Assembly (NCBI GenBank): GCA_005191425.1
Contig: SUPR01000070.1
Location: 1 to 19,391 of the forward strand
DNA: 19,391 bases
From: Candidatus Helarchaeota ASGARD archaeon Hel_GB_B
Lineage (GTDB): Archaea; Asgardarchaeota; Lokiarchaeia; Helarchaeales; HEL-GB-B
Direction: 5' to 3'
The translations under genes were made by a program, and so were the position numbers. The notes below the pieces were generated by a model that saw only the letters and a list, made by a program, of their open reading frames with translations, ran no database searches and was not told where the DNA came from. This document shows, one piece after another, positions 10,538 through 16,625 of this stretch; position 1 is the first letter of the stretch, and each line of letters begins with the position of its first letter.

Positions 10538-11077
10538 CTATTTTTGAATGGAATCAAAATATTTTTTAAATCGTTTGCCATTTTGGATATAGTATTCAGC
10601 ACCCATTTTAATTTTTTGACCCAACTTATCTATATCATCGAATTTTTTTACTAATTTAGCTGGTACTCCAGCCCATAATGTCCCAGATTCACAATGAGTC
10701 TCTTCTTTCAGGACTGCCCCTGCTGCTATTATTACATTGTCCTCAATAATTGCCCCATTTAATATGACTGATTGGATCCCAATTAATACATTATTACCTA
10801 TTTTTCCTGGCCCATGTACCATTGCATTATGCCCAATTACGACATAATCACCTATTTCCATTGAACTTCCAGGTTCGACATGTATAGTTGAATTGTCTTG
10901 GATACTTGTATTTTTACCTATTTTTAATGACCCAAGTTCACACCTAATTACAGAACCAAACCAAATATTTGTTCCCCTGTCTATTTCTACATTTCCAATA
11001 ATTGTAGCATTTGGTGCAATAAAACATTTTTCATGAATTCTGGGTTCTTTTTTATCTTGCGGAGAGGAGATTATCAT
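10538..11077 (-). CDS. Gamma-carbonic-anhydrase family (YrdA/CaiE/PaaY-like) left-handed beta-helix protein
   Basis: Hexapeptide repeats and three His ligands (H66 in IHV; H83 and H88 in GHNAMVH), plus IQDN and GVPAK. Confidence 0.9.
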   Translation of the reverse strand: MIISSPQDKKEPRIHEKCFIAPNATIIGNVEIDRGTNIWFGSVIRCELGSLKIGKNTSIQDNSTIHVEPGSSMEIGDYVVIGHNAMVHGPGKIGNNVLIGIQSVILNGAIIEDNVIIAAGAVLKEETHCESGTLWAGVPAKLVKKFDDIDKLGQKIKMGAEYYIQNGKRFKKYFDSIQK

Positions 11078-11824
11078 AAAGTAAAATTTGATGGAAACTT
11101 TATAAATGTTAGGTCTTAATAAAATTTCATTGATTTGAAGAAAATTTTAAGTTCATCTTAAAATTCTAAATATATATCATATCTATAAATTATATTATAA
11201 TCGAAAGTATTTGTTTTAGAAAAATTAGAATATTATATATGATAAAATTTTAAAAATTAAACCTAAAAAAAATTACCAAAAATTTACTTTAATTATATGA
11301 TTATTTATTTCTTTAAATAAATTATTAATTCTACAAAATGAATAATCTCAACTCTAAAACAATAAAAATATTCTGAAAACCTATACACATTTTAAATACT
11401 TAATTTCAACAACAGTTAATAAATATGTTAAATAATTAAAGAATTCAACACTTAAGAAAAAGACCTATAAAATGAAAACATTATTACTAAAAAATACTTA
11501 ATACGGAGAAAAGATGTTATGTGCAATGTTTTTGGGAAATAATATATACTTAATAGAAAAAAAAATTAAAAGTATTGTAAAATTTTTCTGAGAAATAAGA
11601 ATAAATATTAAACATAATTTCTGATTAAATCCTTTATAAATTTTATTAACCAATCTATATAGGTACATCAAATAGCACTTTTGAATTTAGTTTTATGTTT
11701 GGAATAAATTGCTGAATTTACTTACCAGAAATTAGGTATTTGATATATATTTTTAAGTATTTTTTAAAAGAGATTATTCAAAAATCGATTATTATTAAAA
11801 AGAAAAAGTTAGGATGAAAATAAA

Positions 11825-12613
11825 ATGACAACTCCAATTGATGAAAAAGTTATAAATTCAAAAAGCATTGCTTTTGTGGCAATAATGAGTGCATTAGGGA
11901 CATTGTTAGCTTTGTTTTCAGTTTATCTAGTACCTATCGCTGGCCCGCAAGTGGCTTTAGATCTTTCGCACATTGGGACATATATAGTAGCACTTAGTGG
12001 TGGTCCAATTTTAGGACTACTTACTGGAGCAATCGTTGGTTTTTTACCGTCATATAGGTTCGCAAATCCAGCTATAATGCCAGGAAAAATGATGACAGGG
12101 ATATTTGTAGGACTAATTTATGGACTTTTTCAAAAGATAAACCGTTTTAGAGATAACAAAATTTTTTCAGTAATAGCAATATTAGCTGCCAGTCTAATTG
12201 GATATATACCAGAGTTTATTTTTACTTGGTGGGATACAGTTTACATTGTTGGACTACCTTTCACAACAGTAGTTTTACCTATGTTAATAAAGGCTTGGGT
12301 TGAAATTATTACCATCTCAATTCTAATGACTATTTTATTTGAAATCCCATATATCAAAAATCAATTAGAAAGATTAGTCGGCTCTAAAATTAAACTTTCA
12401 ATTTATGATTATTTAATAAGCGCAATAATAACGATCCCAATATTTTCCATTACACTATATATTGCTTCGATGAGCACACTGATACCAATAGACCCATGGA
12501 GCTTTAAACCAGAAGTTTTTAGTTTAATTTTATGGATTAGTATGGGAATAGAAATAGGACTGATAAGTGGAACAGTAGCATATTATGCATATTCAAAAAT
12601 TAGAAAAAAGTAA
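11825..12613 (+). CDS. ECF transporter substrate-binding S component with C-terminal membrane extension
   Basis: N-terminal AxxxA (AIMSA) and LDLSHIGTYIVALSGGPILGLLTGAIVG, typical of RibU/PanT-like S components. Highly hydrophobic; substrate unknown. Confidence 0.75.
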   Translation: MTTPIDEKVINSKSIAFVAIMSALGTLLALFSVYLVPIAGPQVALDLSHIGTYIVALSGGPILGLLTGAIVGFLPSYRFANPAIMPGKMMTGIFVGLIYGLFQKINRFRDNKIFSVIAILAASLIGYIPEFIFTWWDTVYIVGLPFTTVVLPMLIKAWVEIITISILMTILFEIPYIKNQLERLVGSKIKLSIYDYLISAIITIPIFSITLYIASMSTLIPIDPWSFKPEVFSLILWISMGIEIGLISGTVAYYAYSKIRKK

Positions 12614-12851
12614 AAGATTTTAAATATTACATGGTAAATCAAGTAATTAGCAAAATGATCATAAGAACAATAAAAATTCTTGACTTTTTATCTTTATTTT
12701 TATTTCAAATATCTTAAAATTATATTTTGATGAAATTAACTTGGTAAAATAGTTTGGTTTGAATAAATAGTTAGAATAAAATTCTGGCAAACAATTTCCA
12801 ATACAATTAATTAAAAAATCCAATGATAGAGAAATAATTAAAATAAATGGA

Positions 12852-13949
12852 CTACTTTTTCTTTAGATTTATCTGATTTTTATCTATTTTTTTATGACAT
12901 TCAGGGCACTCCCCATAAACTTCAACATACTCTTTCCAATGATTTAAATGCCCTGCAGCTTTACAATATGGACACTCAAAAATATCTTTCTCACCTTTTT
13001 TAATTTCCATTCCACAAATAGCACATAAAACAGTAGCAATTTCAGTTTGTGTTAGTTTATTCTGACAAACAGGACAAGTACCACTCTTTTTTACCCATTC
13101 TACTAGATGTTTTTCGTGAAAAGTTGCATTACAAAAAGGACAGACTACTTTTTCTTCTTCTTTTATGAAATTGAAACAAATACCACACTTGTAAATATCA
13201 TTCCAGCAATATGGACATGATTCAGCGTTAGGGTCAATTTCCTTACCACAATGAGGACACCTATAAAGCGCTCCTTTTGGCTCATATTCAAAAATATTTT
13301 TTGCTATATCTATTTTTCCATCGATTTCCTTATTTTTTATCATTTCATTTAATATTGTGCTAATTACTTCAATTGATGTCCCTACATTATAAACAAGATC
13401 AACGAGGGGAATGTAAGTTGTATTATATTGTTCGTAAATAGCATCACAGACTAATTGAATTTCGTCCTTTAACTTCTTGATAACTTTATCATAATCAATT
13501 TTAATATAGAGCATCAAATTATTTACATTCATTTTTAAAATTGGGTCATTAGAAGCAACAGCTAAAGATAAATATGGTAATAATCTATCGATAAATGAAA
13601 TTTTCCCATTTTGTACTATTTTAAGCACTAGTTCTACCACTACATTCTTATCTACCTTTTTTTCTTTTGACCTTAAGATGTTAATCATCATGTCGATAGC
13701 AGGTTCATACTGAGCAGTATCAACAAGATATTTAACACTAGTTTCATCTATTCTAATGTTAGGGTCATTAATTTCTGGAGCATATGGAAAGGGAGCTTGA
13801 AATGTAGTTGCTTCTTCCTGGTTAATTTGTTCATTATGGGCCTCTGCAGAAGAAGTTGTACTTACTTTTTCTTCATCACTTAATGTTATATCATCTAATG
13901 CATTTAATGCATCATCAAATATCTCTTCATCTTTATCAGTCAATTCCAA
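12852..13949 (-). CDS. PCI-like winged helix + zinc ribbon + two tandem RING-like domains (putative E3 ligase)
   Basis: PCI-like IPLVDLVYNVGTSIEVISTILNEMIKNKEIDGKIDIAKNIFEY; CPHC..CPYC; two C-x2-C...C-x2-C-x4-H-x2-H-x3-(W/Y)-x6-C-P-x-C modules. TTG start. Confidence 0.8.
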   Translation of the reverse strand: MELTDKDEEIFDDALNALDDITLSDEEKVSTTSSAEAHNEQINQEEATTFQAPFPYAPEINDPNIRIDETSVKYLVDTAQYEPAIDMMINILRSKEKKVDKNVVVELVLKIVQNGKISFIDRLLPYLSLAVASNDPILKMNVNNLMLYIKIDYDKVIKKLKDEIQLVCDAIYEQYNTTYIPLVDLVYNVGTSIEVISTILNEMIKNKEIDGKIDIAKNIFEYEPKGALYRCPHCGKEIDPNAESCPYCWNDIYKCGICFNFIKEEEKVVCPFCNATFHEKHLVEWVKKSGTCPVCQNKLTQTEIATVLCAICGMEIKKGEKDIFECPYCKAAGHLNHWKEYVEVYGECPECHKKIDKNQINLKKK

Positions 13950-14056
13950 GAACCTTTAAAAAATAATTTAATTTAAAAAATTGATAAAATAAAAAATTCC
14001 TATTCTAAATTTTAGTAGATAAGTAATATATATTTTTTTCAAGTGTATTTAATTAT

Positions 14057-15160
14057 TTAAATTCTTTTTATATTTTTAAGACAAATAGGACATTGATGAG
14101 TTAATTGATATACTTCATTCCAGCAATGCTGATGAAATTTGGTATGACAATAGGGGCAAATAATTTTACATTCGCTGGTACCAGAAACTCCTTCAAGATC
14201 TAAAGTGATAGGTCTATTACAAGTTGGACATTTAAACTTGTGACATAATGCACAAACTTTTTCAGAATTTTTCAGTAATAAATCCTTAAATTCTTCAATA
14301 ATAGAGATAATTTTTTTATTTTTATCCCAGTAGTCTAATTGATAAGATATAAACTCAGATATTTTATTTGTCAAGCTCTCACTTTTTAATTTAGAAATTA
14401 GAGAAATTTCTGGAGCTTTTTTAGGATAATTTTCAGGTAATATAAACTCAAATTCAAATTTTTCTCCAGTTTCAATCTTTATATTAACATTGAAAATTAT
14501 TTTAGCACCTGATTGGACTAAACCTGCAATATACGGTTGGATTTCTTTCATTTCATAGAATATTCTAAGTCTGTGTTCTAATTTTTGAGCGATTTCATCA
14601 ACAACTGCAATAACACTACTCTCTGGCTTCCAATTTTTTAAAGTATTAATTTGTGAGATTTTAATGAATTTAGCAGTTTCAGGGGCTAATTTTACAGTAG
14701 GTGGAAGTTTGTCATAATAGATATCAAATTCAAAGTTTTTTATACCTTCATAATCAATTATTATTCGCAGCTTTTTAGGCCCAAGAGCAGTTATGTTATA
14801 ACTATAGGACAATTGTTCACCAATTTTATCTAAAACAGAAGAACTCATAATTAATCCTTCGATTTCACGAATAATTTCTATAACATGTTCAGGTCTGTTT
14901 TCATTCCATTTTTTTAATGTATACAGACTGGCTTTGGGAGTACCTAATATTACCTCTAATGAATTATCATATTGAATTTTTGGTTTAGAAGGATAATTAG
15001 AAAAATCTATAATAACCTCATAATTCGCATAGATAGATGCCGTTAAATATACTTTAATTATGCCAGTACCAAGAACATCAATCGAATACTCATATGCAAT
15101 ACGGTCTAACTCCTCTTGCACTAAATTTTTTGATTCATGTCTTCTAAATTTTTTATCCAT
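14057..15160 (-). CDS. Three tandem UBC-fold (UEV/RWD-like) repeats + C-terminal C4HC3 RING (FANCL-like architecture)
   Basis: Repeats carry NYPSKPKI / KLPPTVKL / LPENYPKKAPEI and TLKKW..HVIEIIREI / TLKNWKPESSVIAVVDEI / QLDYWDKNKKIISIIEEF. RING: CPTC...CPYC-x4-H-x2-C...CPIC. Confidence 0.8.
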   Translation of the reverse strand: MDKKFRRHESKNLVQEELDRIAYEYSIDVLGTGIIKVYLTASIYANYEVIIDFSNYPSKPKIQYDNSLEVILGTPKASLYTLKKWNENRPEHVIEIIREIEGLIMSSSVLDKIGEQLSYSYNITALGPKKLRIIIDYEGIKNFEFDIYYDKLPPTVKLAPETAKFIKISQINTLKNWKPESSVIAVVDEIAQKLEHRLRIFYEMKEIQPYIAGLVQSGAKIIFNVNIKIETGEKFEFEFILPENYPKKAPEISLISKLKSESLTNKISEFISYQLDYWDKNKKIISIIEEFKDLLLKNSEKVCALCHKFKCPTCNRPITLDLEGVSGTSECKIICPYCHTKFHQHCWNEVYQLTHQCPICLKNIKRI

Positions 15161-15503
15161 AGTAATTTTATTAGACCATTTAATATTTTTATTTTTTCTC
15201 TCCGTTTAAATAAAAAATATTCAAATTTTTTAAAAAAAGATATGCAAAAATAGGAACGATGAGGACTATTAATATAAAAAACTTTAAAAAGAAGCAAGAA
15301 TCGATTAAAGATCCAGTAGATATAAGAATTAAATTTTAATTTCATTAATTATTTGTGTATTAATTTTTATCATTTGACGCACTAACTTGACATAATATTT
15401 TCTTGTTAAAATTCATAAAAAAATTTAATTGAATTAATAATTTAAGATAATAATTAAAGGGTTAAATTTAAATATAAATGGATTCGTAATTGAATAGAAA
15501 AAA

Positions 15504-16625
15504 ATGAGAATTTTTCAGATAACTCAATCATTTTACCCGGTCATGGGTGGAATTGAAACATATATCGATAATTTAAGTACAAAACTTTCTCTTAGAGGAA
15601 ATGATTTATATGTTATTACAAGGTTTTTTCCATCTAGAAGTAAGAATACTCGAAAATTGAAATATAAAGTTATTCGTTTAAAAGAAATTAAGGTTCTCGA
15701 AAAATTAAAATTCAAAAATTTTCCCCATTTTTATCGATCGGTCTATTTTTATCCGCTTACTAAAAAATTAGTATCTAAATTAAACCCAGATGTTTTACAT
15801 TTTCACTCCAGATTTTATTTTACGCAAGCTAGATTACTCAAAAAACCGACAATATTTACATCACATACACCTTATTTTTGGTACTGGAAAAAGATATTTA
15901 TACGGAAATACTTTTTAGACTCATTTGATATTATTTTATGTTTAACAAAGCGACTTTTAAATATGGTAAATAAAATTTCAAGTTCAAGAGCAGTTTATTT
16001 GCCACATGGTATTGATACAAAACGTTTTTCTCCAAATTTAGATAGGAATGTAATAAGATTAAGATACAATATAAGTAAAGATGAAAAAATAATTTTATGT
16101 CTTGGAAGGATGGTATTTTACAAAGGTTATCATATTATGATTAAATCAATGCCATATATTCTGGAGAAAAATAAAAAGGTTAAATTGATAATAGTTGGGT
16201 CTGGGCCTTTATTAAATGAACTTAAATCATTAGCAATTAAATATAATCTTCAAAATAATGTAATTTTTGCGGGAAGGGTTGAAGATGAATTTATTCCACT
16301 TTATTATGCAGGGTGTGACATATTTGTTCATCCAGCCCTAAAAGCTGAATATTCTCCCCGTGTTATTTTTGAAGCCCTCGCGTCTGGGAAGCCGATTATT
16401 TCTACTTATTCTGGTGGAGTTGTTGAAATTATTAAAAATTTTCAAAATGGCGTTTTGATTAAGCCCAATGACCCTAAAAAATTGTCTGAAACTATCCTTG
16501 ATCTCCTAAGTAATTCAAAATTATTGCAAAAACTTTCCTCTTCAGCATTACAAAGCGCTTTAAATGAATATTCCTGGGATATAATTATTAATAAATATCT
16601 TGAAATTGTAAAATCAATCTTATAA
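15504..16625 (+). CDS. Glycosyltransferase family 4 (GT-B fold)
   Basis: MRIFQITQSFYPVMGGIE, HGIDTKRF, GRMVFYKG, the E-x7-E motif EYSPRVIFE, ASGKPII and NGVLI. Confidence 0.93.
   Translation: MRIFQITQSFYPVMGGIETYIDNLSTKLSLRGNDLYVITRFFPSRSKNTRKLKYKVIRLKEIKVLEKLKFKNFPHFYRSVYFYPLTKKLVSKLNPDVLHFHSRFYFTQARLLKKPTIFTSHTPYFWYWKKIFIRKYFLDSFDIILCLTKRLLNMVNKISSSRAVYLPHGIDTKRFSPNLDRNVIRLRYNISKDEKIILCLGRMVFYKGYHIMIKSMPYILEKNKKVKLIIVGSGPLLNELKSLAIKYNLQNNVIFAGRVEDEFIPLYYAGCDIFVHPALKAEYSPRVIFEALASGKPIISTYSGGVVEIIKNFQNGVLIKPNDPKKLSETILDLLSNSKLLQKLSSSALQSALNEYSWDIIINKYLEIVKSIL

Follow-up and report, generated by a model that had tools for sequence, protein, structure and literature searches.

A conserved pair of adjacent genes for putative RING-type ubiquitin ligases, one FANCL-like and one with a PCI-like scaffold, in Helarchaeales

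The stretch of DNA analyzed here, referred to as the window, comprises 19,391 bp (positions 1 to 19,391 of contig SUPR01000070.1, assembly GCA_005191425.1) from Candidatus Helarchaeota archaeon Hel_GB_B. It represents contig C152 of genome G000, a metagenome-assembled genome of 3.54 Mb that is 93.7% complete and has a GC content of 27%. Two neighboring genes for RING-finger proteins are located on its minus strand. Gene A (14057-15160; 367 amino acids, aa) encodes a FANCL-like protein with three inactive E2/RWD folds and a C-terminal RING, and gene B (12852-13949 as listed; open reading frame (ORF) of 365 aa) encodes a protein in which a PCI-like scaffold is joined to a zinc ribbon and two RINGs. 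An initial annotation, made from the sequence alone, had described the pair as a co-transcribed two-gene module for a multisubunit ubiquitin (Ub) ligase. As it had stated, the two genes are co-oriented, separated by 107 bp (13950-14056) and flanked by unrelated genes on the opposite strand. The listed start of gene B, a TTG at position 13949, is probably wrong and was revised to 13943, because a TTG codon at this position is conserved: it is kept in all orthologues of the same family (f1), where it is preceded by a conserved AAGG, and the database protein (363 aa) starts there as well. A scan of positions 11000-16000 against Rfam yielded no RNA family, and the only repeats in the region of the pair were low-complexity AT matches without apparent meaning. 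Domain content, conserved zinc ligands, conserved adjacency and a shared phyletic range were observed for the two genes; based on sequence comparisons and structural models, they are interpreted with moderate confidence as two different RING-type ligase proteins for ubiquitin or a ubiquitin-like protein, forming a lineage-specific and functionally linked pair in Helarchaeales.

The gene A product was modeled with AlphaFold2 (AF2), using an alignment of 27 homologous sequences (A1). The model (predicted local distance difference test score, pLDDT, 87) contains three alpha-beta-alpha folds of the UBC type followed by a zinc domain, in agreement with the FANCL-like protein with three UEV/RWD adaptors proposed in the initial annotation. 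Domain 1 (aa 9-108; 14837-15136, minus strand) shows a UBC/UEV-like fold with a YPxxxP motif, lacks cysteine and occupies the position of an ELF domain; it was matched by VIA to the E2 structure 2h2y_B (Z 10.5, 96 residues aligned, root-mean-square deviation (rmsd) 2.3), and its residues P57 and P60 are conserved in A1. Domain 2 (aa 111-205; 14546-14830, minus strand) is RWD-like and represents the first half of a double RWD, whereas domain 3 (aa 206-298; 14267-14545, minus strand) is a canonical RWD that was recognized by Pfam at residues 223-294 (29.5 bits, cut-off 22.8) and matched by VIA to the RWD domains of RWDD1 (Z 10.4) and RNF25 (Z 10.3). Domains 2 and 3 together (residues 115-298) matched the double-RWD modules of Knl1 (Z 9.5) and the FANCL central domain (3zqs, Z 8.4), and the UEV domain of Tsg101 was also among the structural matches (Z 8.9). 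When the whole model was used as a query for Foldseek, human FANCL ranked first (7kzp_L, E 5e-9, full length, 286 residues aligned), followed by BABAM2/BRE, Ltn1 and Drosophila FANCL, with the FANCL structures 7kzp_L and 3k1l both among the full-length matches. Residues 1-302 contain neither a cysteine nor an HPN motif, and all three E2/RWD folds are therefore regarded as catalytically dead.

The C-terminal finger of gene A (aa 301-363; 14072-14260, minus strand) has the arrangement C303-x2-C306 ... C335-x2-C338-x4-H343-x2-C346 ... C357-x2-C360, i.e. the C4HC3 signature of PHD fingers and FANCL. Four additional residues (H307, C311, C314 and C331) are conserved and probably form a third zinc site, as judged from the alignment; all Cys and His residues of the RING are invariant or nearly so among the 27 homologues. 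L305, W347 and P358 align with the residues that contact the E2 in other RINGs.

For gene B, one alignment of homologues (A2) and a second alignment of the N-terminal part (A5) were used. The AF2 model (pLDDT 77.6) consists of an acidic helix (aa 6-19), a disordered linker (pLDDT <50), a helical repeat (aa 69-175), a winged helix (aa 176-225) and three zinc modules. The N-terminal acidic amphipathic helix (D-x-F-F-x-D-x-L-x-A-L-D; 13893-13934, minus strand) contains three residues that are invariant in A2 (L15, L18 and D19). It is followed by the linear motif F-P-Y-A-P-x2-N-D-P-N (aa 54-64; 13758-13790, minus strand), whose residues F54, P55, A57, P58, D62 and P63 are invariant in A5 and nearly so in A2. 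This motif was found only in the long forms adjoining gene A and is lacking in P0030, P0032 and G005, which are short relatives with a single RING.

The helical repeat and the winged helix (13275-13745, minus strand) together resemble a PCI module. In VIA comparisons of residues 149-226, the top four matches were the PCI winged helices of the proteasome lid (Z 11.7), the plant COP9 signalosome (CSN; Z 10.4), PCID2 (Z 9.5) and CSN3 (Z 9.4), with generic DNA-binding winged helices ranking after them (Z about 8-9). Foldseek aligned about 190 columns to CSN2, CSN3 and PCI subunits of the lid and gave further matches to proteins combining an alpha-solenoid with a RING (IFT-A, GATOR2) and to Nse1. 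The PCI scaffold proposed in the initial annotation was thus recovered at the level of the fold, with a helical repeat followed by a winged helix. It was not recovered at the profile level: Pfam PCI remained below its gathering score (10.6 vs 22 bits, E 0.71), hhalign of the module against the Pfam-PCI winged helices of this genome gave a weak match (E 2.4e-4, probability 43%), a profile search of the PDB returned no PCI protein, and a search of 1.84 billion representatives with a profile of residues 55-228 found only five sequences, all from the same narrow family and none of them a PCI protein. Homology to PCI proteins at the sequence level was rejected on the basis of the Pfam, PDB and representative searches, and the term PCI-like is used as a statement about the fold, because no sequence-level link to eukaryotic PCI families was obtained. 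A search of the ESM Atlas provided no useful lead.

A second protein encoded in the same genome combines similar elements. The C153 protein (9572-11305 of contig C153, L156:286-2019, minus strand; 577 aa) contains a true Pfam PCI domain (aa 109-173, 35.9 bits), and its C-terminus carries a cassette of a zinc ribbon and a RING-like finger that is homologous to that of gene B. Both proteins share the signature ...MI.N.EI.G.ID..., and the PCI signature of the C153 protein is 44% identical to residues 188-223 of gene B over 36 residues. As a separate observation, proteins of ~690-1020 aa with a zinc-ribbon and RING-like cassette of this type are common across Asgard genomes.

The zinc ribbon of gene B (aa 229-248; 13206-13265, minus strand) is built around C231, C234, C245 and C248, all of which are invariant in A2; its Pfam matches are sub-threshold (Zn_Ribbon_1, 24.2 bits, cut-off 25; DUF7575, 24.9 bits, cut-off 28.5; DZR, 24.4 bits, cut-off 27.3). 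RING1 (aa 254-299; 13053-13190, minus strand) is a C4H2C2 cross-brace that exceeds the zf-RING_2 cut-off (32.3 vs 27.3 bits, at 254-296). Its residues I257, W285 and P293 are invariant and located at positions that touch the E2 in other RINGs, and a Gln occupies the linchpin position. RING2 (aa 308-355; 12885-13028, minus strand) is also of the C4H2C2 type, with the spacing pattern at 309-351, nearly invariant ligands in A2, and I311, Y341, P349 and H/K at the E2-contact and linchpin positions. A cross-brace of eight Cys/His ligands that are invariant or nearly so across homologues is common to all three fingers of the pair. The spacing C-x2-C-x4-H-x2-[H/C], which the initial annotation had regarded as an unusual feature shared by the three RINGs, is indeed present in each of them; it is not peculiar to the pair, however, since it also occurs in the small RING of the Ub operon of this genome (76 aa, Ub-ESCRT cluster). 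RING1 is similar to this small RING (E 4e-9) and has identical spacing. The srfp protein of C. subterraneum, a reconstituted E3, requires I30, W58 and R69 (PMC5654768). I30 and W58 of srfp, mutation of which abolished its activity, correspond to I257 and W285 of gene B RING1. RING2 and the gene A RING have hydrophobic or aromatic residues at the equivalent positions.

Orthologues of genes A and B adjoin each other, with order and orientation kept, in all five genomes that contain them, namely G000 and G001 (family f1) and G002, G004 and G006 (family f2). The same adjacency was found on GCA_013375455.1, GCA_054383275.1, GCA_004524165.1, JGI 3300033149, two ENA contigs and one Logan contig; the NCBI locus tags of the two orthologues are consecutive, and wherever either gene is present, in genomes or on contigs, the pair is intact. 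The full RING pattern was detected in only 6 of ~3,379 crude ORFs of the genome, two of which are genes A and B. Among six such ORFs, about 0.009 adjacent pairs are expected by chance and one was observed, so that the adjacency of genes A and B is improbable by chance.

The surroundings of the pair differ between the two families and also within f2. In f1, a GtrA or glycosyltransferase gene lies on one side and an energy-coupling factor (ECF) gene on the other; in the window, these are a divergent GT4 glycosyltransferase gene upstream (15504-16625, plus strand) and a convergent gene for an ECF S-component downstream (11825-12613, plus strand). In f2, the pair is bordered by a divergent gene for a multi-winged-helix protein of 730-760 aa on one side and by luciferase-like or acyl-CoA dehydrogenase genes on the other. 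The former protein, which has several winged-helix domains (TrmB/HTH_47-like), is encoded directly upstream of gene A at all f2 loci (L096:4082-6292, L097:8104-10305, L098:5774-7960 and L165:288-2567) and is absent at that position in f1.

The initial annotation had proposed to follow the synteny of the pair across Loki-, Hel-, Thor- and Heimdall-type genomes. The genes are neighbors in every genome and contig that carries the pair, but this arrangement is not conserved across the Loki, Thor and Heimdall lineages; the pair was not found elsewhere in Asgard archaea and is conserved in two families of a single order (Helarchaeales) only. The A family at large has a wider range. At E 1e-20 or better, members were detected in 46 of 69 genomes of family f4 and in one of seven genomes of f5, and none were detected in the other Asgard families sampled, which restricts the family to one class. 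Maximum-likelihood analysis of the A family placed the f1 and f2 sequences of gene A in one clade (support 95/92), whose sister comprises E1-adjacent paralogues together with forms of 550-620 aa from the sister order. The other A-family clades (E1-adjacent forms and long forms with four RWD folds) have no gene B neighbor. Full-length gene B was found only in f1 and f2. Its short relatives with a single RING (260-290 aa) are devoid of the N-terminal motifs and do not adjoin an A-family gene, and the N-terminal extension and second RING of gene B are seen exclusively next to gene A. The gene A clade and long gene B thus coincide in range and position.

Several side observations were made on the A family. 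Its long forms in f4 (L020, L026 and others; 550-620 aa) contain a fourth, Cys-less pseudo-E2 at the N-terminus as well as an acidic disordered linker with the motif E-E-Y-I-T-P-D-L-x2-Y-P-P-D, in which T140, P141 and D142 are invariant. A fusion of an active E2 to an E3 in these proteins was rejected, as the extra UQ_con-like domain (36.3 bits) has neither the HPN motif nor the Cys and constitutes the fourth pseudo-E2. A so-called Rosetta link between the N-terminal motif of gene B (NDPNAYPDF in f2) and the linker of the long forms (PDLNAYPPDF) was dropped at an hhalign probability of 0.2%. In many A-family homologues of genus g7 (G258:C32, G282:C50, G033:C239 and others), the profile match spans one TGA and one TAA in frame. 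RWD proteins encoded elsewhere (G002 C172, 533 aa; G000 C121) contained no RING or PCI fusion.

A profile search of the contig bearing the pair gave no match to UQ_con, ubiquitin, ThiF or JAB, consistent with the initial annotation, which had noted that the window is devoid of genes for ubiquitin, E1, active E2 and JAB proteins and had placed the core Ub genes elsewhere in the genome. This second expectation was likewise confirmed. Contig C128 (56500-66100, L087) carries a complete Asgard Ub-ESCRT cluster, with genes for EAP30/Vps36, Vps28 and UEV-Vps23 on the ESCRT side and, on the Ub side, for the 76-aa small RING, ubiquitin (82 aa), an E2 of 150 aa that has HPN and Cys, and an E1 of 429 aa that includes a Ub-like domain. 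At the end of contig C17 (60-1905, L073), a JAMM/MPN+ protein (147 aa, HSHPN) is encoded near a second active E2 (169 aa, HPN...C), and these two genes could belong to a second cluster for Ub-like conjugation. At least eight JAB matches were obtained in the genome. Another connection is provided by a gene A paralogue for a protein of 429 aa with three RWD folds and a RING (C178:7895-11600, L086:4608-8597), which lies between a gene for an NTP-transferase/LbH protein (eIF2B-epsilon/GMPPB-like) and an E1-like ThiF gene, with a prenyltransferase gene beyond. This order (NTP-transferase/LbH, RWD3-RING, E1-like) is kept in G000, G001 and G005, and G003 retains at least the RWD3-RING gene beside the E1-like gene. 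The paralogue directly adjoins an E1-like gene in a total of four genomes, and the family is thereby connected with Ub-like conjugation. In f2, a 390-460-aa protein without a Pfam match takes the place of the E1 neighbor. Two further loci of the genome were recorded in passing. At C56:4748-5623, a protein of 178 aa that contains a PCI-type winged helix is encoded on the same strand as its neighbor, a JAB/MPN protein of 312 aa, an arrangement that recalls the proteasome lid and the CSN. At C115:12897-15470 (L088:3886-6470), an amine oxidase gene and an 81-aa ORF separate the genes for a 61-aa small RING and for a 245-aa protein whose N-terminus is RWD-like, both of them on the same strand, which makes this locus a further loose association of RING and RWD genes.

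Taken as a linked pair of ligases, the two proteins would divide their tasks as follows. In gene A, the three catalytically dead E2/RWD folds could serve as docking surfaces for substrate, partner or Ub, in front of a C4HC3 RING that probably binds three zinc ions. In gene B, the PCI-like helical and winged-helix scaffold and the zinc ribbon would carry two srfp-type RINGs. Both proteins are predicted to recruit Ub-charged E2s encoded elsewhere (contigs C128 and C17) and to act in the same pathway, possibly within one hetero-oligomeric E3. In the latter case, contact would be made through the disordered, lineage-specific N-terminal part of gene B with its acidic helix and FPYAP-NDPN motif, or through the RINGs. 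Judged from synteny alone, a physical heteromer of A and B, of the BRCA1-BARD1 or RING1B-BMI1 type, is possible. The more specific proposal that the two form a single multi-RING ligase, in which the PCI-like scaffold with its two srfp-type RINGs docks by its N-terminal motifs onto the pseudo-E2 domains of the FANCL-like subunit, is considered rather unlikely. A complex prediction with full-length A and B (alignments A1 and A2), which was run without controls, reached a score of 0.01 compared to a mark of 0.32 and speaks neither for nor against binding.

A number of observations weigh against a functional link or against ligase activity. No Ub-related gene is located on either flank of the pair. 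The confinement of the pair to one order implies that part of the adjacency could be by descent, and an acyl-CoA dehydrogenase homologue within a few kb of the pair in both families is a further sign of residual synteny. The A-B gap measures 73-160 bp at all loci, and the 107 bp in the window correspond to the 55th percentile of the same-strand gaps in the genome, outside the peak of tight operons (36% of the gaps are 30 bp or less). An alignment of six f1 loci revealed that the spacer (13950-14056, minus strand) contains a conserved A-run with TTTATA, reminiscent of a BRE (transcription factor B recognition element) and TATA box, about 25 nt after the gene A stop codon, as well as conserved T-runs; the AAGG mentioned above precedes the TTG start of gene B by about 10 nt. 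Because the genome has only 27% GC, the box, the T-runs and the AAGG are weak evidence. The box and the T-runs suggest separate transcription of A and B, and co-transcription, as claimed in the initial annotation, is therefore not supported by the sequence; the genes are probably under the control of separate promoters rather than part of a tight operon. Adjacency, order and strand are conserved as in an operon, but a short gap free of internal promoter or terminator was not found. It is for this reason that the strict version of the original claim, a true bicistronic operon for an obligate heterodimeric RING-RING E3, is judged unlikely, even though strand and order are identical everywhere and an AAGG upstream of a conserved non-AUG start is expected of an internal or leadered cistron. 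The promoter-like box and the T-runs, together with a gap outside the operon range, speak in favor of A and B being independent E3s or adaptors, each with its own E2, its own promoter and different substrates, that are neighbors through shared ancestry in a narrow clade, for instance after local accretion of RING genes. The limitation of the pair to one order, the survival of the acyl-CoA dehydrogenase synteny from f1 to f2 and the fact that other members of both families occur alone or with other neighbors point in the same direction. Independent ligases are nevertheless regarded as somewhat unlikely, given that the pair is unbroken wherever either gene occurs although its immediate flanks have been replaced, that the N-terminal extension and second RING of gene B exist only beside gene A, and that two of only six such RING genes would hardly have become neighbors by chance.

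The assignment of both proteins as ligases was weighed in the same manner. The zf-RING_2 match of the gene A RING is weak (16.4 bits, below the cut-off of 27.3), and the Prok-RING_1 match of gene B RING2 (308-352) is also below its cut-off (26.4 vs 29.1 bits). The fingers could accordingly be PHD-like or treble-clef modules that serve for binding, with the winged helix and the RWD folds acting as adaptors for Ub, peptides or nucleic acids, e.g. in sorting or regulation related to ESCRT or the proteasome. Such a role would agree with the C4HC3 spacing, which equals the PHD signature, with the similarity of gene B to the winged helices of DNA-binding regulators at Z 8-9, and with the fact that RWD/UEV folds, such as the UEV of Tsg101, often serve for binding only. 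It is considered highly unlikely, since RING1 of gene B exceeds the zf-RING_2 cut-off and retains invariant Ile, Trp and Pro residues at the E2-contact positions, the nearest relative is the small RING of the Ub operon, which has an active E3 as its counterpart in Caldiarchaeum, gene A finds its best full-length structural matches in the E3s FANCL and Ltn1, and a paralogue of the A family is linked to an E1. The reading as a lineage-specific, functionally linked pair of RING-type ligases remains the preferred one.

Searches of the literature yielded no description of the two proteins, singly or as a pair. In the archaeal ubiquitin systems known to us, a single small RING protein serves as the E3. 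In view of this pair, some Asgard archaea seem already to have assembled larger ligases in a modular fashion, from inactive E2 folds, a PCI-like scaffold and several RINGs, with the genes placed apart from the core Ub operon. If A and B work together, they would offer a simple, expressible model for the pre-eukaryotic origin of multi-subunit RING ligases and of FANCL- or listerin-like architectures; should they in fact form one ligase, it would be a prokaryotic multi-subunit RING E3 assembled from the RWD/UEV, PCI and RING blocks that eukaryotes use in the Fanconi anaemia core complex, the CSN and proteasome lid, and the ligases of ribosome quality control. The narrow taxonomic range of the pair limits this significance.

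Among known systems, gene A was compared first and foremost with FANCL, the E3 of the Fanconi anaemia core complex, which acts there with FANCB and FAAP100, uses UBE2T on FANCD2/FANCI, has about 375 aa and consists of an ELF domain, a double RWD and a C4HC3 RING. The two are similar in size and in the order of their domains (UBC-like fold, double RWD, C-terminal C4HC3 finger), and Foldseek and VIA recovered the complete FANCL architecture in gene A, with FANCL as its best full-length structural match and all three folds lacking a catalytic Cys. They differ in that the identity in structural alignments amounts to 10-14%, the probable third zinc site is an extra feature of gene A, the domains are oriented differently (whole-chain rmsd about 21 A) and the gene A family is limited to one Asgard class; searches with the Pfam FANCL_C and FANCL domains gave no match in gene A, so that membership of the FANCL family was not established at the sequence level. 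Ltn1 and RNF25, in which RWD domains are joined with a RING, and Nse1, in which winged helices are joined with a C4HC3 RING, were all among the structural matches, but the number and order of their domains differ and there is no sequence-level homology to genes A and B; the partners of these eukaryotic proteins are the ribosome and NEMF, GCN1, and the SMC5/6 complex. The PCI subunits of the proteasome lid, the COP9 signalosome, eIF3 and TREX-2 share with gene B a helical repeat followed by a winged helix, whereas gene B stays below the Pfam PCI score; we know of no PCI protein with a fused RING. The srfp proteins of C. subterraneum and the Asgard Ub-ESCRT clusters, finally, have the C-x2-C-x4-H-x2-H spacing and the Ile, Trp and Pro E2-contact residues of the gene B RINGs. 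Unlike srfp, a single domain encoded inside the Ub operon, gene B is located far from Ub genes, combines two such RINGs with a zinc ribbon, a PCI-like scaffold and a disordered N-terminus, and carries a Gln instead of an Arg or Lys at the linchpin position of RING1.

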